From: Candidatus Buchananbacteria bacterium
GTDB lineage: Bacteria > Patescibacteriota > Patescibacteriia > 2-01-FULL-39-33 > JBAYJR01
Direction of reading: 5' to 3'
DNA: 64,000 nucleotides
Assembly (NCBI GenBank): GCA_041665005.1
Contig: JBAYJR010000004.1
Coordinates: forward strand, 20,669 to 84,668
Shown here: positions 8,681 through 51,041 of the stretch, one piece after another
Layout of the letters: every line of letters begins with the position of its first letter
Numbering within the stretch: position 1 is the first letter of the stretch
The notes under the pieces: generated by a model
Database searches by the model: none
The model's input: the letters and a program-made list of their open reading frames with translations, nothing else
Told to the model about the DNA's origin: nothing
Position numbers and translations under genes: made by a program

Positions 8681-9100
8681 TTAAAAATTAAATTTTCTAA
8701 TCCGCTCAAGCAGTAATTCTAACTGCTTAATTAAATAATCATAATCTGGCTGACTTAAAGCTTCAGGCTTAACAATAACTCGAGCTAAGCCCGCGCTCAC
8801 TTTATTGGTCTCAAACTCCCAACAGTTCCTAACTACCTGACTGACAAACAAGGCCAACATACCCTCATCATCCTTATTTACCTCGTTGGTAGTTTCTTGG
8901 TTATGCTCATCGGCAAAAACCAAAAGATTACGCGTTTTAACAAACCAATGATTTTTTTCCTGCGCGACAGTTTTGTTGCCAAATTCATGACGAGCTAAAT
9001 CATGTAACCGAACAATGGTGTTATTCAGGATGTGCTCTAAGTCAGATTTATGTTGCAAAACTGGCAGTTGAACAATCCCAGCGGAGTTCTCGCCACTCAT
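8681..9100 (-). CDS. Hypothetical protein
   Basis: 139-aa ORF with no recognisable motifs, divergent from the pilus operon. Confidence 0.4.
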   Translation of the reverse strand: MSGENSAGIVQLPVLQHKSDLEHILNNTIVRLHDLARHEFGNKTVAQEKNHWFVKTRNLLVFADEHNQETTNEVNKDDEGMLALFVSQVVRNCWEFETNKVSAGLARVIVKPEALSQPDYDYLIKQLELLLERIRKFNF

Positions 9101-38656: not shown

Positions 38657-39643
38657 TTATTTTTTACGCCGAATAACTTTTTTGGCTTGCGCAATTATTT
38701 GTCTGGTATTAATCTGATACTTATCCAATAACTCTTGAGCCTCTCCTGATTCACCAAATTTATCTAGCATCGCCACCGCTTCTATCGGCACCGGAAACTT
38801 TTGCGCCAACAATTCTGCGACCGCGCCAAATAAACCACCATTGATTTGATGTTCTTCAACTACGACCACGGCTCCAGTTTTCTGAGCCGCCTTAATGATG
38901 GCCAGTTGGTCTAAAGGTTTAATAGTGTGATTATTAACCACCAAACTGTTTATTTTTTTCTGAGCCAAAGCCTGCGCGGCCAATAAGGCTGAATAAACTA
39001 CTGGTCCACCAGCAATAATGGTAACTTGCGGGTTTTGACCAGTCCAAAAAATTTCCGCCCGGCCAACCTTAAAAGGTGTTTTAGTAGTAGTAAAAACCGG
39101 CGTAGCCTGGCGCGTTAAACGGAGATAAACCGGCCCCTTAATTTTAGCCGTCGCTAATACTGCCTGTTTTGTTTCTTCGTAATCGCTCGGAGCAATAACC
39201 GTTAAATTAGGCAACACCCGCATTAAAGCTAAATCTTCCAACGCTTGATGAGTGGCGCCATCCGGACCAACCGAAAGACCACTATGGCCACCAATAATTT
39301 TAACATTAGCCTTGTTGTAAGCGATACCAACCCGAATTTGTTCCCAATTACGGCCCGGAGAAAAAACCGCATACGAAGAAATAAAAGGTATCTTGCCCGC
39401 TAACGCCAAACCCGCAGCCAGACCGGCCAAATTTTGTTCGGCTACCCCCACTTCAAAAAAACGTTCAGGAAATTTCTGAGCAAAAGCTTCACAACGAGTT
39501 GATTCAGTTACATCCGCGCACAACACTACTACTTGCTTATTTTTTTGACCTAATTCCACCAAAGCTTCACCAAACCCATCGCGCGTGGCTTTAGTAATAA
39601 TTGACTTAGTAAAAATATTTTTAGCTAAACTTTTTTCTAACAT
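38657..39643 (-). CDS. tktB: Transketolase, C-terminal subunit (pyrimidine-binding + C-terminal domain)
   Basis: 328 aa with Pyr-binding and C-terminal domain motifs (GPDGATHQALEDLALMRVLPNLTV). Split-transketolase arrangement with the upstream gene. Confidence 0.85.
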   Translation of the reverse strand: MLEKSLAKNIFTKSIITKATRDGFGEALVELGQKNKQVVVLCADVTESTRCEAFAQKFPERFFEVGVAEQNLAGLAAGLALAGKIPFISSYAVFSPGRNWEQIRVGIAYNKANVKIIGGHSGLSVGPDGATHQALEDLALMRVLPNLTVIAPSDYEETKQAVLATAKIKGPVYLRLTRQATPVFTTTKTPFKVGRAEIFWTGQNPQVTIIAGGPVVYSALLAAQALAQKKINSLVVNNHTIKPLDQLAIIKAAQKTGAVVVVEEHQINGGLFGAVAELLAQKFPVPIEAVAMLDKFGESGEAQELLDKYQINTRQIIAQAKKVIRRKK

Positions 39644-39644
39644 A

Positions 39645-40502
39645 TTATAAAAATTTACCGGCTAATTGTTTACCCAATATTTGCAACTCAGCTAAAGCTT
39701 TCTTGGCCTCAACTTCGTTTGGCGCTTTACCGTGCCATTGATAATTATTTTCCATAAAACTAACCCCTTTACCCGGAATAGTTTTGGCCAAAATTACCGT
39801 TGGCTGTTTAAGATTAACTTTGGCTTGCTGACCAGCCTCAATAATTTTTCCTAAATTGTTGCCGTCAATTTCTATTACCTGCCAACCAAAAGCTCGCCAT
39901 TTATCCGCTAACGGCTCTAAGGGCATTACCTGTTCAGTTGGGCCGCCAATTTGAATATTATTACGATCAACAATAGCTGTTAGATGCGTTAATTTATGTT
40001 TGGCGGCAAACATTATCGCTTCCCAACTTTGGCCCTCATCTAACTCACCGTCGCTCATTAAACAATAAACCCAATAATCTTGTTTATCCAGCTGTCGCGC
40101 TAACGCTAGACCAATCGCCTGCGACAAGCCCTGACCCAAAGGACCACCAGAAGTTTCAATACCCGGCAAGCCGTGATTAAAAGTAGAATGTCCTTGCAGT
40201 CGCGAGCCTAATTTTCTTAAGGTGACTAATTCTTTCTTAGAAAAAAAACCACGTTCAGCTAAGGTGGCGTAAAGTACTGGGCAAATATGAGCATTAGATA
40301 AAACCAAGCGATCACGTTCCGACCAATGTGGCTTTTTCGGATCAACTTTTAAAAGATTAAAATACAAAGCCGTAAAAACATCAGCCATCCCCAAAGACCC
40401 AGCGCTATGACCAGACTTGGCGGCTAACAACATTTTGATGACTTCTTGTCTAATATTATTAGCCGTTACGGCTAAGTTTTGATAATTAATTTGCTCTGAC
40501 AT
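39645..40502 (-). CDS. tktA: Transketolase, N-terminal subunit (TPP-binding)
   Basis: 285 aa with the TPP-binding motif (GHSAGSLGMAD...CLMSDGELDEG). Confidence 0.85.
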   Translation of the reverse strand: MSEQINYQNLAVTANNIRQEVIKMLLAAKSGHSAGSLGMADVFTALYFNLLKVDPKKPHWSERDRLVLSNAHICPVLYATLAERGFFSKKELVTLRKLGSRLQGHSTFNHGLPGIETSGGPLGQGLSQAIGLALARQLDKQDYWVYCLMSDGELDEGQSWEAIMFAAKHKLTHLTAIVDRNNIQIGGPTEQVMPLEPLADKWRAFGWQVIEIDGNNLGKIIEAGQQAKVNLKQPTVILAKTIPGKGVSFMENNYQWHGKAPNEVEAKKALAELQILGKQLAGKFL

Positions 40503-40919: not shown

Positions 40920-41555
40920 TTATTTTGCCAGCTGTAATGAACTTAACCTTGATTGATTGTCCAAATAATTACCAATCGCTAAAATATCCACCCCGGCTTT
41001 TACTATTTTTGAAGTAATTTCAAGCTTAACTCCCCCATCAACTTCTATTATAGCACGAGGAAATAACTGACGTAACTGCATAATCCGAGCTAATTGTTTA
41101 GGATCAAATTTTTGCCCACCGCGGCCCGGCGCTACCGACATTACCAAAATTAAGGGTTTAGTTTGTTGTTTTAAATAAGGAATGATCTTGATTAAATTAG
41201 TCTGCGGATTAATTGCCAAACAAAACTCTCGCTTATTTTTTTGCAACAATTCTTGTAAAGCTAAAAATTTTGCCTGATTTAAAGTTTCAACGTGAATAAT
41301 AAATTTTAAAACCTGTTTAACTGCTAGCCATTGTTGCACATAAACCATCGGATTTTTTACCATTAAGTGCACCTCCCATTTAAACCCGGCAATGTTTTTG
41401 ACCGCCTGGGGTTTAAGCCAAGTAACCGGCTTAGTAAACTTACCGTCAACAATATCTAATTGTGCTGTAGCTAGCCTTAATTTTTTTAAAACCACTAACC
41501 GATCTAAAAAATCTTTTTGGCTCCTGGCTAAAATTGTTGGCACAATTTTTACCAT
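40920..41555 (-). CDS. rpe: Ribulose-phosphate 3-epimerase
   Basis: VPTILARS, QLDIVDGKF and EVHLMV motifs of the Rpe TIM barrel. Confidence 0.75.
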   Translation of the reverse strand: MVKIVPTILARSQKDFLDRLVVLKKLRLATAQLDIVDGKFTKPVTWLKPQAVKNIAGFKWEVHLMVKNPMVYVQQWLAVKQVLKFIIHVETLNQAKFLALQELLQKNKREFCLAINPQTNLIKIIPYLKQQTKPLILVMSVAPGRGGQKFDPKQLARIMQLRQLFPRAIIEVDGGVKLEITSKIVKAGVDILAIGNYLDNQSRLSSLQLAK

Positions 41556-41557
41556 AT

Positions 41558-41995
41558 TTATTTTTCTAAGTCAGCAATTTGCGCTAAACGACGACGATGC
41601 CTAGCCTCACCAGAAAATTTAGTTTGTAACCACTGTAAAACTAATTTAATGGCTAATTGTTGATCAAATTGACGCGCCCGTAAACTGGCAATATTAGCAT
41701 TGTTATGTAAACGCGACATTTTGGCGGTATAAGCATCATAAATTGGCGTCGCCCGTGCTCCTTTAACTTTATTAGCCGCAATCTCCATACCTTCGCCACT
41801 GCCACAAATTAAAACACCGCGATTATTTTTATTTTTAACTACCGATTTAGCCACCGCCGCGGCCACTAAGGGATAATCTACGGATTGAGTAGTATTAGTA
41901 CCTAAATCAACAAATTTAAGTTTTTTTTGCTCCAAAACTTTTTTTAATTTGGCTTTCAATTGGTAACCGGCATGATCCGCACCTAAATAAATCAT
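41558..41995 (-). CDS. rpiB: Ribose-5-phosphate isomerase B
   Basis: MIYLGADHAGYQLK...GVLICGSGEGMEIAANK is a canonical RpiB/LacAB fold. Confidence 0.85.
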   Translation of the reverse strand: MIYLGADHAGYQLKAKLKKVLEQKKLKFVDLGTNTTQSVDYPLVAAAVAKSVVKNKNNRGVLICGSGEGMEIAANKVKGARATPIYDAYTAKMSRLHNNANIASLRARQFDQQLAIKLVLQWLQTKFSGEARHRRRLAQIADLEK

Positions 41996-41996
41996 A

Positions 41997-43493
41997 TTAT
42001 TTGATGGTATAAATTTTTAATTTTTTAATGGCCGCTAAAGCCATATTAATCCGTTCTTGATTGGCGGCATACATAGTAAAGATTCGGTCGCCTTTTTTAA
42101 TTTTTTGACCCAATCGCACATTTAAATAAAGTCCCGCCAACTTATCCAACGGTGTTCCTAAAATTCTAGCAATTTCGGAAATCCGCTTATTATCAACTAT
42201 TCTTACTTTACCCGTTTTATCAGCATTGACATAAGATTTAACTGCCGACAAAGTAATCTTTTCCGAATCAATTTGACCATTGCCGCCCTGAGCAGTAATA
42301 ATCTCTTGCATCTTTTTCCAAGCTTGGCCGGATTTCAAAGCCGCGGTAGCCATTTTGATTCCCTGACCCTTTTTGGCCTTACCACATAATTCTAACAACT
42401 TACCGGATAGAAAAATTGATTTTTTTTCTAAGTCCAGTGGCCGATTTTCTTTTTGTTGTAATACCCGCAAAACATCGCGGGCTTCTAACGCCGGACCCAC
42501 TCCCCGCCCAATCGGTTCTAAGGCAGCGGTAAACACCACTTCACATTTAATATCAAACTTTTTGGCTAAAAACAAAAATTTTTCTCTAATCATCTTGGCT
42601 ACCTTTAAATTTGGCACCTTAGCTGTTGGTCCAACCGGCACATCAATAATTAAATATTTAATATCGCAGGCCACTTTTTTAGCCATAATTGACACTAACA
42701 TTTTACTGTAAGGTTCTAATGACAACGGATAAGATACTTGAATAATTTTATCATCAGCGGGTGCTAAATTTAAACCACCACCCCAAACAATACAGCTATG
42801 ATGTTCTTGCACGATACTTTTAATCCGACTGGTTTTTAAGGCGACTGGCGCTAAAACCTCCATCGTATCTGCGGTCCCCGCTGGTGAAGTAATGGCTCGC
42901 GAAGAAGTTTTGGGAATCGTTAAACCTAAACTGGCAATAATTGGAATCGTCACCATCGTAGTGCGATTACCCGGCAAACCGCCAATTGAATGTTTATCTA
43001 CCACCACGCCCCTAAATTTTAAAGTTTCTCCGGTTTTCGCGGTGGCTTTAGTTAAATAAAAAAGTTCTTCATTAGAATAATCATGAACAAATCCCGACGC
43101 CACAAAATAGGCAATTTCGGTCATGGACAGACGATTATTAACAATATCTTTAATAATATTTTCAATTTCTTCGTAAGATAAAGAATGCCCTAATAACTTT
43201 TTTTTAATTGCTTCAATGGATGGTGGGCGCGAAACAAAATGCATTTCTACTAATTCACTGGCCTCGACCGGATAATTTTTCCAAACTTCTTTATAAAAAC
43301 CAATTTGCCCCCGCTTGACTTCTTCGCGCGATAAATTAGCTGAAGCCACCACATTTTGGCCGCGCCAATTTATCTTAATGCGATCGCCCGCCTTAATACC
43401 CAAGTGCCAGGCTTCGTCAGTATTTAAAACCACCACCAAGTGTTCTTGCCCGACTGTAATATCTAATTTTTTTGCTTTAAGAAAAAAAGCCAT
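41997..43493 (-). CDS. AMP phosphorylase / thymidine phosphorylase family protein with N-terminal extension (DeoA-like)
   Basis: 498 aa with glycosyl-transferase family 3 motifs (DKHSIGGLPGNRTT, SRAITSPAGTADT) plus a ~90-aa N-terminal domain, as in archaeal-type AMP phosphorylases. Confidence 0.7.
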   Translation of the reverse strand: MAFFLKAKKLDITVGQEHLVVVLNTDEAWHLGIKAGDRIKINWRGQNVVASANLSREEVKRGQIGFYKEVWKNYPVEASELVEMHFVSRPPSIEAIKKKLLGHSLSYEEIENIIKDIVNNRLSMTEIAYFVASGFVHDYSNEELFYLTKATAKTGETLKFRGVVVDKHSIGGLPGNRTTMVTIPIIASLGLTIPKTSSRAITSPAGTADTMEVLAPVALKTSRIKSIVQEHHSCIVWGGGLNLAPADDKIIQVSYPLSLEPYSKMLVSIMAKKVACDIKYLIIDVPVGPTAKVPNLKVAKMIREKFLFLAKKFDIKCEVVFTAALEPIGRGVGPALEARDVLRVLQQKENRPLDLEKKSIFLSGKLLELCGKAKKGQGIKMATAALKSGQAWKKMQEIITAQGGNGQIDSEKITLSAVKSYVNADKTGKVRIVDNKRISEIARILGTPLDKLAGLYLNVRLGQKIKKGDRIFTMYAANQERINMALAAIKKLKIYTIK

Positions 43494-46262: not shown

Positions 46263-48311
46263 TTACAAAGCCAACTCTTTTACTTTCTCCCAAGTAGCTT
46301 CATTTATAACTATAATTTTTTGCTGACCAATTAAATATAAATAATCATTAAGATATACTGCTCGGGAAATCGCCTCCCCGCTAATAGCTTTAGTTAGTTG
46401 CAACTGATCTTTAGCATAAGAGAAAATATAGCCACCCTGACCACCCGGCAAGAAAAATACCTCTTTTTTTTCATCCTGCAAAAAAGCATGATGATTATTA
46501 ATCGCCTCAGAATAGTATTCATTTAACAAATATTTACTAACTTCCTGTGGCGCCTGCGGGTTGCTAACATCAAACAACGACAATTTTACTTGCGAACCTT
46601 CCTGACCCACCCCTAAAATTTTATGTTCCGCCAAAGGATGTAGGTAGCCGGAGTAACCTGGAATTTTTAACTCCCCGGACAAACGAGGTGCTTTAGGATT
46701 ACTTAAATCCAAAACATAAAATGGATCAGTTTGTCTAAAAGTAACCACATAGCCTTGACCAGCAATAAAACGCACAGCATAAATTCTTTCACTTAACCCT
46801 AAATCTTTAACAGCACCTAAAATACCCAAACTGCCATCCAAGACATAAACATCATTAGTGGATTTAACGCTGCCAACATTAACCGGAAAACCCCACCAGC
46901 CATTATTACCAATTGCCGTAGCAACCCGTAAATTACCTTGATACTCATCTAAAGAAAATTGATTGAGCGGATAACCCGGCACCACCCCAGTGGCCATAAC
47001 GGTAAATTTAGCTAAACTAATTTTCATAATGCCGGTTGATTCGGTCTGCCGTAAATTTGCTTGATAATAAACACTTAGTTGATTGGCTAAATCATTTTGT
47101 TTTTGTAATTTTTCATCGGCACCAAGACTATTAAAATATTTTTCCAAAATCGCCTGCATTTCTAAGCGCTTGGCTGGCGCGCTTAAATCATAGCTATTTA
47201 ATTTAACTAATTTTTGCAACACTTCGTTAGGAATAGTTTTTTGACCCGTGGTCTGAAAAAAATCCAGCAAAAAGGCTACCGTGTCTCCTTGATAAGAATA
47301 AGTCAAATACAAATTATCATTGGACATATACACCAGACTTTGAGCGGAGGAACCAGTCACTGCCGTCTTTTTATCAACCTGACCAGAAACCGGATCAATC
47401 GCTAAAATTGAAAAAGTAACATCGGTCGGTACCGCGGTAATTGGATGATAAATTTCCGTACACGGCAACACCAAAGATTTTTCCCCGAGCTTTAATAAAG
47501 GCATCGGACAAGGCTGGTTATAATTTATATAATTTTGCGTGATTAAATACAATTTACCGTCTTTTAAGCGCGCCGTTTTTAAACTAGTATTTTCCGCTAA
47601 ACTAATCTGCCATTTTTCTACTGGCGCTTGCGGATTATCAACCGCAAAACCAAAAATTTTCTGGTCAGCCAATACCACTAATATTTTTTTATCTTTAATT
47701 ACCAATAAATCTCCTGACTGTTTAATCTCTCCGGCCTTCGCTAAACTAGTGGGTGGCCAAGCGGTAATAATTTGAGTCAAACCAACTGGCGTTTGATAAG
47801 GCGGCATCGCTCTAATACTATCAACCGGAGCCATCATTGGCTGAACCTTTGAATAATATAATTGCTGACCAGAATAATAAATATTTTGGCCATCAGTTTT
47901 TACAATGTCCGGCTCATCAATGCCTAGCACTTGAACATTGGTTTCCGATACCCGCGCTGGTGTAGCTATGGCTTTATCACTACTAGGCGCGCTAACTGCC
48001 ATTCCTTCGGACCTCGCGTTAAGTGTTGCTATTCCGCCACTAACGCCAGAGCCACTACTCAAATCTTGGGTCAAGGTTAAATATTTTTTAAAATCATCAA
48101 CCGAGGCAAATTGCTTAATGGTCTCCGAAACCTTTTTTGACTGTTTGATTTCTTCGGCGCTCGGTGGCGGTAAAATACCATTTAAATAAATTACCGGCTG
48201 ATAAATTAAACTTAGTTGCCACCACATCATTAATAATACCGCCACAGCCAAAATGATAATTAACGGCACGGCTAATTTATCAGAAACTGATTTTTTAAAA
48301 GGATTTACCAT
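46263..48311 (-). CDS. Secreted/membrane-anchored beta-propeller domain protein
   Basis: 682 aa with an N-terminal TM/signal anchor (LAVPLIIILAVAVLLMMWW) and a long beta-rich repeat architecture similar to 'beta-propeller domain' proteins of Firmicutes/Archaea. Confidence 0.45.
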   Translation of the reverse strand: MVNPFKKSVSDKLAVPLIIILAVAVLLMMWWQLSLIYQPVIYLNGILPPPSAEEIKQSKKVSETIKQFASVDDFKKYLTLTQDLSSGSGVSGGIATLNARSEGMAVSAPSSDKAIATPARVSETNVQVLGIDEPDIVKTDGQNIYYSGQQLYYSKVQPMMAPVDSIRAMPPYQTPVGLTQIITAWPPTSLAKAGEIKQSGDLLVIKDKKILVVLADQKIFGFAVDNPQAPVEKWQISLAENTSLKTARLKDGKLYLITQNYINYNQPCPMPLLKLGEKSLVLPCTEIYHPITAVPTDVTFSILAIDPVSGQVDKKTAVTGSSAQSLVYMSNDNLYLTYSYQGDTVAFLLDFFQTTGQKTIPNEVLQKLVKLNSYDLSAPAKRLEMQAILEKYFNSLGADEKLQKQNDLANQLSVYYQANLRQTESTGIMKISLAKFTVMATGVVPGYPLNQFSLDEYQGNLRVATAIGNNGWWGFPVNVGSVKSTNDVYVLDGSLGILGAVKDLGLSERIYAVRFIAGQGYVVTFRQTDPFYVLDLSNPKAPRLSGELKIPGYSGYLHPLAEHKILGVGQEGSQVKLSLFDVSNPQAPQEVSKYLLNEYYSEAINNHHAFLQDEKKEVFFLPGGQGGYIFSYAKDQLQLTKAISGEAISRAVYLNDYLYLIGQQKIIVINEATWEKVKELAL

Positions 48312-48458
48312 AAAATTTTCGCTAAATTAAATTTTTAAGACTACCTGAATTATAGCAAAAAATCAGGGTTGATGCTATTACTGTAACAATTTAAGGGTTT
48401 TCACGTCTACTCAAGTGCCTGGCAATTTGGATAATTTTGTTTTAAGAAGGAGGATAAA

Positions 48459-48563
48459 ATGGGTATCTACCAAATTTTACAATTAAAATTACCTCAAGTA
48501 GATGCAGTACAGATTGGCATTTTGCTAATTGTGCTGGTGACCGTAAGATTATTTTTAAGATAA
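48459..48563 (+). CDS. Candidate small ORF (34 aa), Ile/Leu/Val-rich hydrophobic peptide
   Basis: Strong RBS AAGAAGGAGG 7 nt upstream of the ATG. Peptide MGIYQILQLKLPQVDAVQIGILLIVLVTVRLFLR; an intrinsic terminator at 48647-48673 follows. Either a micro-membrane protein or a branched-chain amino-acid leader peptide. Confidence 0.3.
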   Translation: MGIYQILQLKLPQVDAVQIGILLIVLVTVRLFLR

Positions 48564-48646
48564 AGGCCACCAAACCCAACAAGGAAAGACGCTGTCTAAG
48601 CCTTACTAAAATAAGACTTATACACCACTTTTCCTTAAAACTCAAA

Positions 48647-48673
48647 CCCCACAAATTTATTTGCGGGGTTTTT
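48647..48673 (+). terminator. Intrinsic terminator
   Basis: CCCCACAAAT-tt-ATTTGCGGGG (one mismatch) followed by TTTTT. Confidence 0.55.
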
Positions 48674-48680
48674 ACAACTC

Positions 48681-48709
48681 TTGACAAAGTTTTAGCCCCG
48701 CGCTATGCT
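48681..48709 (+). promoter_or_regulatory. Candidate promoter for the leu leader/leuA transcript
   Basis: TTGACA at 48681-48686, a 17-nt spacer, then TATGCT at 48704-48709. Confidence 0.45.
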
Positions 48710-48721
48710 TAATTTAAGTAT

Positions 48722-48805
48722 ATGTTTAAAATTATTAAACCAATCCAAACCGGACTAAACCTAAATTTGTTAGGCTTGTTGTTATCGCCGGCTAGGTTTG
48801 GCTGA
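48722..48805 (+). CDS. Candidate leucine-rich leader peptide (27 aa) of the leuA attenuator
   Basis: MFKIIKPIQTGLNLNLLGLLLSPARFG: 7 Leu codons among 10 consecutive codons (CTA AAC CTA AAT TTG TTA GGC TTG TTG TTA). The stop lies inside alternative stem-forming sequence. Confidence 0.45.
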   Translation: MFKIIKPIQTGLNLNLLGLLLSPARFG

Positions 48806-48834
48806 TAGTTTTTAAACACCGTTACGTGTTAGCC

Positions 48835-48862
48835 GCCTAGCCTCAGTCAGCTAGGTTTTTTT
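48835..48862 (+). terminator. Attenuator terminator hairpin immediately upstream of leuA
   Basis: CCTAGC-ctcagtca-GCTAGG stem followed by TTTTTTT, ending 36 nt before the leuA RBS GGAAGGAGGG. The upstream GGCTAGG (48790-48796) can alternatively pair with CCTAGCC (48836-48842) as an antiterminator. Confidence 0.5.
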
Positions 48863-48898
48863 GTACCTTACAATTAAAACAGGAAGGAGGGACATTAT

Positions 48899-50482
48899 AT
48901 GTCCAACAAAATTTACATTTTTGACACCACCTTAAGGGATGGTCAACAGTCAGCTTGTGCCAGACAATTAAGTCTGGAAGAAAATTTAATGGTAGCCCGG
49001 CAATTAGCCGCTTTAAACGTGGATATTATTGAAGCGGGTTTCCCGATCGCCTCCCCCAAAATTAAAGAGGCGGTTACGGCGATTGCCCAGACCATTCAAG
49101 GCCCCACCATCTGCGGTTTAGCGCGCGCCTTGGAACCAGATATTTCAGAATGCTGGGACGCCGTCAGATTTTCTACCGACCCCCGAATTCACACCTTTAT
49201 CGCCACCAGCGATATTCATGTGAACGAAAAATTTAAAAGTTGGGGTAATACTTTAGCCGCCAGACGTGACCGCGTGATCGCCCAAGCGGTGCTAGCGGTT
49301 AAGCTGGCTAAAAGTAAAACTGCTGATGTTGAATTTTCCGCGGAAGATGCTGGCCGTACGGATTTGGGCTATCTAATTGAAGTAGTCGCCGCCACTATTG
49401 CCGCTGGTGCGACTACGATTAACATTCCCGATACGACTGGCTTTTGTACTGGGATTGAAATGTATGAAAAAATTAAAATCCTCAAAGAACGTGTGCCAGG
49501 AATTAATCAGGTGGTATTAAGTGTCCACTGTCATAATGATTTGGGACAAGCCACACCGAATTCTTTGATGGCAATTAAAGCGGGGGCCCGGCAAATTGAA
49601 GGCTGTATTAATGGTGTCGGCGAACGCGCTGGTAACACTCCCTTAGAAGAAGTAATTGTCACTTTGATGACTCGAGCCGACTACTACGGGGTCGGTACAC
49701 AAATCAACACCGAACAACTTAAACAGACCAGTGATTTAGTCGCTAGACTTCTGGCCATCCCCGTCCAACCCAATAAGGCGATTGTTGGAAAAAATGCTTT
49801 TCAGCATGCCGCCGGTATTCATGTTCATGGCGTGACCCTTAATCCTGAAGTTTATGAAGCAGTTGACGCTGGTAAAATTGGTCAGCAAGCCGCGACGATT
49901 GTTTTGACCAGACAAACCGGTAAACATGGTGTACAAAACCGTCTGACCACCTTGGGTTATCAGAATCTTGGCGAAGAATTTATCAACCAATTCTACGAAC
50001 AAAAATTTCTACCATTGGCAGATAAAGTCGGCGAGGTTACCGATCAACATCTCCGCGCTTTAATGGATGAACCACTTAGTAATAAACCAACCGAAATGAT
50101 CATTTATGTTAATTATGACATTGCTAAACGGCAAAATGGTTGGAACGCCTGGTTAAAAGTTAAACTAAATCCCGCCGCTGACTTACTGGAAGAAGCTGGT
50201 CAGGGTGACGGACCAATTGATGCCTTGATTTCAGCTTTAACCAAAATTTCGGCTAAGTTAGATTTAAAGTTTAGCTTAACAAAATTTGAAACGGTTGGCG
50301 TGGCCCGCGGAGCCAATGACTTAGGTGAGGCGACGGTAGTTTTACAAGATAATGGCCTGACCGCTTTGGGTCGGGGTTCCTCAACGGATACCATTGAAGC
50401 GGCAATTAAAGCTGCTATCAATGCGGTCAATCAATTATTAGTGGCGCGGACTGAACCACCAATAATTAAAGACCGACTATAA
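48899..50482 (+). CDS. leuA: 2-isopropylmalate synthase (LeuA/CimA family, with C-terminal LeuA-dimer regulatory domain)
   Basis: IFDTTLRDGQQS N-terminal DRE-TIM motif, HCHNDLG metal site and a ~120-aa C-terminal regulatory domain. The Leu leader upstream supports leuA over cimA. Confidence 0.8.
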   Translation: MSNKIYIFDTTLRDGQQSACARQLSLEENLMVARQLAALNVDIIEAGFPIASPKIKEAVTAIAQTIQGPTICGLARALEPDISECWDAVRFSTDPRIHTFIATSDIHVNEKFKSWGNTLAARRDRVIAQAVLAVKLAKSKTADVEFSAEDAGRTDLGYLIEVVAATIAAGATTINIPDTTGFCTGIEMYEKIKILKERVPGINQVVLSVHCHNDLGQATPNSLMAIKAGARQIEGCINGVGERAGNTPLEEVIVTLMTRADYYGVGTQINTEQLKQTSDLVARLLAIPVQPNKAIVGKNAFQHAAGIHVHGVTLNPEVYEAVDAGKIGQQAATIVLTRQTGKHGVQNRLTTLGYQNLGEEFINQFYEQKFLPLADKVGEVTDQHLRALMDEPLSNKPTEMIIYVNYDIAKRQNGWNAWLKVKLNPAADLLEEAGQGDGPIDALISALTKISAKLDLKFSLTKFETVGVARGANDLGEATVVLQDNGLTALGRGSSTDTIEAAIKAAINAVNQLLVARTEPPIIKDRL

Positions 50483-50488
50483 CAAAAA

Positions 50489-50520
50489 GCCCAGAGAACA
50501 ATTCTCTGGGCTTTTCTATC
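50489..50520 (+). terminator. Bidirectional intrinsic terminator
   Basis: GCCCAGAGAA-caa-TTCTCTGGGC perfect 10-bp stem, with a T-run after it and an A-run before it. Confidence 0.7.
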
Positions 50521-50531
50521 TGACAAAAATT

Positions 50532-50846
50532 TTAGTAACGACTGCGGCCAAAACCTCTGCTGCTGCCGCTATTGCCACCAGCGCGAGGAGCGCGTGGCTC
50601 CATTGGTCTGGCTTCGTTGACTTTCAAGGCACGGCCTTCAAAGTCTTTGCCGTCAAGCATTTCAATGGCTTTGGCAGCTTCTTCATCAGAAGCCATTTCT
50701 ACGAAACCAAAACCTTTGGATCTACCTGACATCTTGTCAGTTATAATAGTAGCGGATTCTACAGCACCGGCCTGAGCAAAATAATCTTGCAAAGACTGTT
50801 GAGTGGTGCCATAGGATAAACCACCGACATATAACTTTTTTCCCAT
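50532..50846 (-). CDS. RRM-domain RNA-binding protein with Gly/Arg-rich tail
   Basis: ATG at 50844-50846 (the track uses an upstream TTG). RNP2/RNP1 motifs LYVGGL and KGFGFVEM; the C-terminal RAPRAGGNSGSSRGFGRSRY. Confidence 0.8.
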   Translation of the reverse strand: MGKKLYVGGLSYGTTQQSLQDYFAQAGAVESATIITDKMSGRSKGFGFVEMASDEEAAKAIEMLDGKDFEGRALKVNEARPMEPRAPRAGGNSGSSRGFGRSRY

Positions 50847-51041
50847 AAAATGTATATTTGACTTAATTAAATGCAAGTCGACCTCTTCTAAGTCGTTCCT
50901 CGCTTAAGCCCAAATAGATTATGGGCAAGACAAAGGAAAACTACTTAAAACTACTTACAATAAACAGTATAGCACAAAAAATAGTTAATGTCAAGCTGTA
51001 AATTAGTCGCTAATTAACAACTTTTTGTTACTTATTCACTC

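Follow-up and report, generated by a model that had tools for sequence, protein, structure and literature searches.

The present analysis indicates that the leuA gene of a Candidatus Buchananbacteria bacterium, studied here in a stretch of 64,000 nucleotides of contig JBAYJR010000004.1 (hereafter the window), is probably controlled by a functional ribosome-mediated transcription attenuator, in which the translation of a leucine-rich leader peptide would decide whether the gene is transcribed. An earlier reading of the letters alone (the original prediction) had proposed this layout, and it held in every in silico test that we ran, be it for the codon run, the terminator, the antiterminator, the anti-antiterminator, the placement of the stop codon or the promoter. 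The same reading had guessed a host resembling the Candidate Phyla Radiation (CPR). The contig is indeed labelled Candidatus Buchananbacteria, a lineage of the Parcubacteria group of Patescibacteria (CPR), and its LeuA is identical to MFA6428347.1, which bears the same label. Ribosome-mediated attenuation is itself a textbook mechanism and brings no new principle; it is the host lineage and the setting that are unusual. The elements of the leuA region are the following.

48681-48709, forward strand: sigma-70-type promoter, with TTGACA (48681-86), a 17-nt spacer and TATGCT (48704-09), a 10/12 match
48722-48805, forward strand: leader-peptide open reading frame (ORF), ATG start, 27 codons, translation MFKIIKPIQTGLNLNLLGLLLSPARFG followed by a stop
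48723-48753, forward strand: region 1, 5' arm of the anti-antiterminator, pairing with 48788-48818 in the terminator conformer
48755-48784, forward strand: regulatory codon run, with Leu at 7 of 10 codons (LNLNLLGLLL)
48788-48818, forward strand: region 2, pairing with region 1, or with region 3 via 48790-97 and 48800-09
48824-48842, forward strand: region 3, 3' arm of the antiterminator (48824-34 and 48835-42), the last 7 nt of which double as the 5' arm of the terminator
48850-48862, forward strand: region 4, with the 3' arm of the terminator (GCTAGGT, 48850-56) and a T7 run (48856-62), the last T of the arm being the first of the run
48882-48890, forward strand: Shine-Dalgarno (SD) sequence of leuA, GGAAGGAGG, with a strong AAGGAGG, beginning 19 nt past the U-tract
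48899-50482, forward strand: leuA, 2-isopropylmalate synthase (IPMS), 527 aa, ATG at 48899, with an HMGL-like catalytic domain and a C-terminal LeuA_dimer regulatory domain (Pfam)

The leader ORF was found where it had been predicted, with its 27 codons and its seven Leu within ten, namely CTA at 48755 and 48761, TTG at 48767, TTA at 48770, TTG at 48776 and 48779, and TTA at 48782. Such a density is rare. Across the six frames of the window, at least seven Leu per ten codons occurred at six places only, and at least seven of any one amino acid per ten codons occurred in 2 of the 1119 short ORFs (10-45 codons), the leuA leader being the sole one of the two that is intergenic and starts with ATG. 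CTA, used for the first two Leu codons of the run, makes up 10% of the Leu codons here, against 45% for TTA and 27% for TTG. The distance from the leader ORF to leuA is 93 nt and, as leuA encodes IPMS, the codon run is cognate to the pathway.

The leader ATG lacks an SD sequence, lies in an AT-rich context and, with a transcription start at about 48716-18 as deduced from the promoter match, would be preceded by a 5' untranslated region of about 5 nt. In E. coli, such an SD-less and nearly leaderless start would be a serious objection. In the window, SD sequences were present at 8 of the 60 genes, the 52 others being AT-rich upstream, like the leader. Because so few genes have one, the start of the leader appears normal for this genome rather than anomalous, although its translation is an assumption of the proposed scheme. 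This census of gene starts suggests frequent leaderless or SD-independent initiation. Two further observations concern the same starts: the genes bearing an SD sequence mostly have a strong AAGGAGG (starts at 8681, 40553, 45141, 48459, 48899, which is leuA, 54881 and 55873), and some of the SD-less genes have a TATAAT box within about 10 nt of the ATG.

The stem motifs that had been proposed, GGCTAGG at 48790-96, CCTAGCC at 48836-42 and GCTAGG at 48850-55 followed by T7, are all present at these positions. Beyond them, we identified the region 1 arm (48723-48753), which completes a scheme of 1:2, 2:3 and 3:4 helices. Regions 1 and 2 form an inverted repeat (I1) of 31 nt that is 71% complementary, with an alternative register in which AAACCUA (48757-63) pairs with UAGGUUU (48793-99). 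The antiterminator 2:3 hairpin reached -24.1 kcal/mol, through 8 bp (48790-97/48835-42) and 10 bp (48800-09/48824-34), and the terminator 3:4 hairpin (48835-41/48850-56), of 7 bp with an 8-nt loop and followed by U7, reached -10.3 kcal/mol. The folding check suggested with the original prediction was made by constrained folding of 48716-48864, and gave -34.4 kcal/mol for the terminator conformer (1:2 helix plus 3:4 hairpin) and -34.8 kcal/mol for the antiterminator conformer. Both global conformers are isoenergetic, as expected of a kinetically decided switch. The stop codon of the leader (TGA, 48803-05) lies inside region 2 (arm 2 of the scheme), and the polymerase may pause at a small hairpin there (48789-48804), which U5 follows.

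The competition between these structures was compared with that at other terminators by folding the 70 upstream nt together with the 5' arm of each of the 43 terminator-like sites of the window. The site proximal to leuA ranked first, at -27.0 kcal/mol and with its 5' arm paired upstream at 7 of 7 nt, and this energy was reached by 3 of 1000 dinucleotide shuffles of the upstream 70 nt. The 9-mer GCTAGGTTT was found at two arm positions and nowhere else in the window, which ruled out a repeat or mobile-element origin of its copies. One distance has to be corrected: the terminator had been placed 36 nt before the ribosome-binding site of leuA, whereas 36 nt separate the end of its U-tract from the leuA ATG, and 19 nt separate it from the binding site (48882-90). 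A promoter scan of these 36 nt (48863-48898) found no promoter-like site, and leuA transcripts must therefore traverse the terminator. All the elements of the attenuator, their mutual exclusivity and their geometry are thus established from sequence and computation.

Transcription start, leader translation, ribosome stalling and regulatory outcome are what we infer from this arrangement. Transcription would proceed from TTGACA/TATGCT, and the leader ORF, about 5 nt from the 5' end, would be translated behind the moving RNA polymerase. When leucine is plentiful, the ribosome would reach the stop codon and cover region 2, region 3 would pair with region 4, and transcription would end 36 nt before the leuA ATG. 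When leucine is scarce, the ribosome would stall within the run, for the most part at one of its first five or six Leu codons (48755-48779), thereby covering 48740-53 of region 1 and freeing region 2, whose pairing with region 3 (8 + 10 bp) would block the terminator and allow leuA to be transcribed. If the leader is not translated at all, the long 1:2 helix would form first and the terminator next, so that termination would be the default. The attenuator would in this way tie leuA expression to the supply of charged tRNA-Leu.

The footprint of a ribosome is assumed to reach about 12 nt past the first base of the A-site codon. With such a footprint, a stall at Leu codons 1-6 spares arm 2 and covers 48740-53 of arm 1, while arm 2 is blocked once the ribosome has reached the last Leu codon or the stop codon. 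The geometry suits the last one or two Leu codons less well. Masking tests gave the antiterminator when the RNA was freed from positions 48771 through 48791, and the terminator when it was freed from 48796 onward.

A second case was found in another CPR phylum. Metagenome contigs were scanned for the three-stem pattern GGCTAGG-N(34-46)-CCTAGCC-N(5-11)-GCTAGGTTTT, the chance count of which is, by rough estimate, near one in about 10^12 bases, and one locus only was returned (L022, the same as L031; GCA_001818435.1, contig MHKO01000048.1). The locus encodes the LeuA protein OGY91359.1, from Candidatus Komeilibacteria, which also belongs to the Parcubacteria group. Its leuA is preceded by a promoter (TTGACT-17-TATAGT), by an SD-less leader ATG located 11 nt past the -10 box and by a leader of 20 codons, MMSHKHNAVVILSLLLLKRG, which contains a Leu run and ends at the TAG of GGCTAGG. 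The 1:2 helix covers the Leu codons, the terminator has 13 bp followed by U6, and the leader has a fold z of -8.1. A relaxed form of the stem pattern was scanned for in viral contigs as a negative control and gave seven matches, six inside a phage coding region and one in a plain terminator before tRNA genes; the stem pattern alone is not specific. The context of the Komeilibacteria match, a Leu-run leader together with leuA, cannot be chance.

Both leaders thus have in common a Parcubacteria-group host, a locally orphan leuA, a TTGAC-type promoter, a Leu-run leader, an SD-less leader ATG 11-12 nt past the -10 box, the core stems GGCTAGG(TTT), CCTAGCC and GCTAGG with a T run, and a strong AAGGAGG SD sequence on the next gene. 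The Komeilibacteria leader differs by its 20-aa peptide with the TAG stop in GGCTAGG, by a far stabler fold and by a 74-aa ORF with an AAGGAGG SD sequence that lies between the attenuator and leuA (L022 5351-5575, equivalent to L031 9751-9975). This 74-aa ORF has no Pfam match, and the Buchananbacteria window holds no counterpart of it. The Komeilibacteria leuA sits between a PRK-family kinase gene and holB, and no leu or ilv gene was found within 10 kb of it. Using blastn, the Buchananbacteria window gave no hit on the L022 leader, and there was no other DNA similarity; the alignment of both leaders by MAFFT reached 72% column identity, driven by the searched-for stems and the SD sequence. 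The seven Komeilibacteria contigs are identical over 460 nt of the leader region, and no covariation could be drawn from them for that reason. The literature searched contains no description of the Komeilibacteria attenuator.

Several points weigh against a leucine attenuator at the Buchananbacteria leuA. The leader ATG is SD-less and only some 4-6 nt from the deduced transcription start, so that leader translation has to be assumed. A ribosome at the last Leu codon (48782) would cover several nt of arm 2, so that not all of the run can signal read-through. The terminator stem is modest, with 7 bp (4 G-C, one G-U) and -10 kcal/mol, and the leader as a whole is not unusually stable (fold z = -1.45). 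A leucine-regulated leuA with no leuBCD nearby is physiologically puzzling. The Buchananbacteria leader is a single sequence with no orthologous leader, there being no LeuA above 49% identity among 5.8 billion proteins. The Komeilibacteria stems match because they were searched for, LeuA is only 42% identical between the two hosts and the homology of the leaders is unproven; each lineage provides one independent sequence, without covariation. Finally, leaders that resemble attenuators can behave otherwise, as those of Streptomyces coelicolor ilvB and leuA were not classical on mutation (PMC1262725).

This last precedent also speaks for a real but differently operated switch, which we consider improbable, in which the conditional terminator would respond to an RNA-binding protein, a small ligand or uncharged tRNA, and the Leu codons would be by-products of the CUA/UAG stems. 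The alternative structures do stand on their own, the leader has no SD sequence and a very short 5' end, and a gene for an RRM-type RNA-binding regulator adjoins leuA (50532-50876). Only two of the seven Leu codons, however, are the stem-forming CUA, and the stems have no need of the five others (TTG, TTA); neither the in-frame ATG nor the stop codon in arm 2 is explained, and the Komeilibacteria leader likewise has a Leu run in frame. No Rfam family, T-box included, matched at E <= 10, and a leader of about 145 nt is too short for a T-box.

It also seems quite improbable that the 27-codon ORF is an independent gene for a small hydrophobic peptide with an ordinary terminator, leuA being expressed, with no sensing of leucine, through leakage of that terminator or from a weak promoter that overlaps it. 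A possible -10 box, the hexamer TACAAT, lies at 48869-74, but it has no acceptable -35 box, and the promoter scan between terminator and leuA was empty. Leu is already the most abundant residue of the genome (11.9%), and a further small hydrophobic ORF, with a terminator of its own, is found just upstream (48459-48563), so that small-peptide genes may be common here. Such a gene would nevertheless leave three things unexplained, namely a strong antiterminator that overlaps the terminator arm, a stop codon inside arm 2 and the same design before the Komeilibacteria leuA. An accidental arrangement, in which an unremarkable leaky hairpin would lie in AT-rich intergenic DNA and regulate nothing, would suit a single sequence with no conservation data and a fold z of only -1.45, yet it is very hard to reconcile with several independent features of low probability that coincide within 180 nt before a cognate gene. 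About 1 of 1119 short ORFs has such a Leu run, the antiterminator is the best among 43 sites and was equalled by 3 of 1000 shuffles, the conformers are isoenergetic and the promoter is a 10/12 match. The recurrence of the design before leuA in another CPR phylum also speaks against chance.

The absence of a T-box had been part of the original prediction, and was borne out. At the gathering threshold, Rfam returned two tRNAs only for the whole window, and a permissive scan (E <= 10) of 48300-49000 returned neither the T-box (RF00230), Leu_leader (RF00512) or RF01743 (Leu/Phe leader), nor any other credible family; these scans ruled out a T-box or a known riboswitch as a reading of the leuA leader. 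As a positive control, the same tool detected T-boxes before leuA in loci L002 and L020.

Relatives of this LeuA are distant. In the search of 5.8 billion proteins, none exceeded 49% identity, the best non-self matches being at 48-49%, and a scan of genome contigs found relatives at 40-49% identity only, which makes a comparison of orthologous leaders, and hence of their conservation and covariation, impossible. Two of the nearest homologues by sequence (P0002 and P0003, 48% identity) have a T-box before leuA, recognized by its visible motif in L018 and by Rfam in L020, and other near homologues (L028-L030) have leuA within ilvBNC-leuACDB operons. T-box leaders before leuA span 2093-2642 in L018, 3566-3834 in L020 and 2736-2962 in L002, the last of which is a Bacillota metagenome-assembled genome (MAG). 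Leu-rich frames before leuA in two Cytophagales loci (L011, L017) were rejected as chance occurrences in T-rich DNA, with no start codon and no terminator.

Several known systems may be compared with the Buchananbacteria leader. The enterobacterial leu leader has a leader ORF of about 27-28 codons, a Leu run that includes the rarer CUA, alternative helices and a terminator before leuA, and its peptide (leuL) contains four consecutive Leu codons. The logic is identical in both (leuL, RF00512), with 1:2, 2:3 and 3:4 helices and an intrinsic terminator before leuA. By contrast, there is no sequence or covariance-model similarity between the two (no Rfam match at E <= 10), the Leu codons are interspersed in Buchananbacteria (LNLNLLGLLL) instead of four in a row, the leader is SD-less, nearly leaderless and hosted by a CPR bacterium, and the element would control a single orphan leuA instead of leuABCD. 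The Leu T-box leaders of the nearest LeuA homologues act on the same gene and would sense the same quantity, the charging of tRNA-Leu, but they are tRNA-binding RNAs of about 230-270 nt with no ORF, while the Buchananbacteria window holds no T-box.

The original prediction had called such an attenuator unusual outside Proteobacteria, which was overstated, since leader-peptide attenuators of the Leu type are on record in Actinobacteria (PMC1262725) and Staphylococcus aureus (PMC5794164). The S. aureus ilv-leu operon is indeed preceded by a Leu-rich attenuator peptide that has experimental support (Kaiser et al., 2018, PMC5794164). It likewise combines a Leu-rich leader peptide with a terminator and an antiterminator, outside Proteobacteria, and read-through there depends on Leu. 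It differs in being conserved among staphylococci, in lying upstream of ilvD in a nine-gene operon and in acting together with CodY (PMC5794164), whereas the Buchananbacteria element is unrelated to it in sequence and is known from sequence alone. In Actinobacteria, classical attenuators of trp and leuS and Leu-run leaders before leuA have been described (Seliverstov et al., 2005, PMC1262725). The actinobacterial LEU element is a pseudoknot formed by pairing of the Leu run with the SD sequence of leuA, and it often has no terminator (PMC1262725), in contrast to the Buchananbacteria leader, which has a clear U7 terminator and no evident pairing between Leu run and SD sequence. On attenuators or leuA in CPR bacteria, our literature search returned nothing relevant.

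Attenuation needs tight coupling, and its occurrence in two CPR phyla would therefore argue for transcription-translation coupling there. In these reduced, uncultured bacteria, such coupling would work from an SD-less and almost leaderless start. The element is of interest for its host lineage, for this type of leader, for the orphan state of leuA and because it recurs in another CPR phylum. An attenuator implies that the cells monitor the charging of tRNA-Leu and answer with isopropylmalate synthase. Amino-acid biosynthesis is generally held to be missing from CPR organisms. Apart from leuA, no gene of the leucine or branched-chain pathways was found within the 64 kb of the Buchananbacteria window or within 10 kb on either side of the Komeilibacteria leuA, and a lone leuA under Leu control would be a concrete lead on its role in a symbiont with minimal biosynthesis. 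As two of the nearest LeuA homologues use a T-box, the same signal would be read by different RNA devices on related genes, T-box and leader peptide, which makes a case of regulatory turnover. The element is small (about 145 nt) and suited to a heterologous or cell-free coupled system, with no need to culture the organism.

A broader reading, which we put forward tentatively and hold to be rather unlikely, is that an orphan leuA with a leucine attenuator forms a recurrent, possibly ancestral module of Parcubacteria-group CPR bacteria. It is based on the same three-stem core (GGCUAGG, CCUAGCC and GCUAGG with a U run) and on the SD-less, near-leaderless leader in both phyla, the leuA genes of which are of different origins, with LeuA sharing 42% identity. 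Were it true, transcription-translation coupling in CPR bacteria would be tight enough to permit attenuation with a leaderless-type start, the gene would have been exchanged behind a retained regulatory region, and the lone isopropylmalate synthase would have a leucine-linked role, perhaps as a pathway step shared with a host.

As to the origin of the Komeilibacteria gene, its LeuA is 65-73% identical (about 70%) to a set of homologues, the few named members of which are Latescibacteria or Gemmatimonadetes MAGs. In all four homologues of this set that we examined, leuA lies within an ilvC-leuA-leuCD cluster; ilvN precedes ilvC in three of them, and in two an ORF rich in isoleucine, leucine and valine (ILV-rich) precedes ilvN. 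These two leader ORFs (L023 515-661 and L024 546-662, e.g. ending in GILLVLPVLLSLDLAI and a stop) are located 3' of a TTGACA-type promoter and 5' of ilvN-ilvC-leuA-leuCDB, on large metagenome contigs of 5.7 and 4.1 Mb whose LeuA is 69-70% identical to that of Komeilibacteria, and are probably branched-chain attenuators. Between ilvC and leuA, three related loci (L023 2371-2475, L024 2371-2496 and L025 at about 2369-2470) also share a short ORF or element that is conserved and has an SD sequence of its own, ATGGAACCCGGTCT(A/T)GG(T/C)GACCT....

Regarding leuA itself, its product scored 580 bits against NCBIfam NF002086 (IPMS), for a cut-off of 532, and the catalytic motifs are conserved in the LeuA alignment. 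The lack of leuBCD noted in the original prediction extends to the whole window, in which no leuB, leuC, leuD or ilv gene was found. The transcription unit is closed by the following element.

50489-50511, both strands: bidirectional terminator with 9-bp stems each, closing the monocistronic leuA unit and common to it and to the convergent gene for the RRM protein

This convergent gene (50532-50876, reverse strand) encodes the RRM-type RNA-binding protein mentioned above. The content of the window is CPR-like, with type IV pilus genes, mur, ftsW, uvrABC, a split transketolase, rpiB and rpe, and it also includes an AMP-phosphorylase-like gene and many proteins with no family match, which fits a CPR genome. 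The AMP-phosphorylase-like gene (glycosyl transferase family 3 plus PYNP_C domain) lies near rpiB, rpe and the split transketolase (41997-43493, 38657-40502 and 40920-41995), and the cluster corresponds to a CPR-typical set for nucleoside salvage and the pentose-phosphate pathway.

Directly 5' of the leuA promoter, an element at 48459-48675 (forward strand) begins with a 34-aa ORF (48459-48563, MGIYQILQLKLPQVDAVQIGILLIVLVTVRLFLR) that has a strong AAGGAGG SD sequence, a C-terminal half rich in I, L and V and no family match. It is followed by a hairpin (48581-48636) and by a terminator (48643-75), directly 3' of which the leuA promoter sits; the region has a fold z of -3.7, and no antiterminator was found for this ORF. 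The product may be a small membrane peptide, or the ORF may act as a second leader in tandem, of the ILV type. The GC content of leuA is 45%, against 38% for the window. Lastly, a small hairpin (GGACAU/AUGUCC, 48890-48904) takes in the start codon of leuA and may provide an extra layer of translational control.

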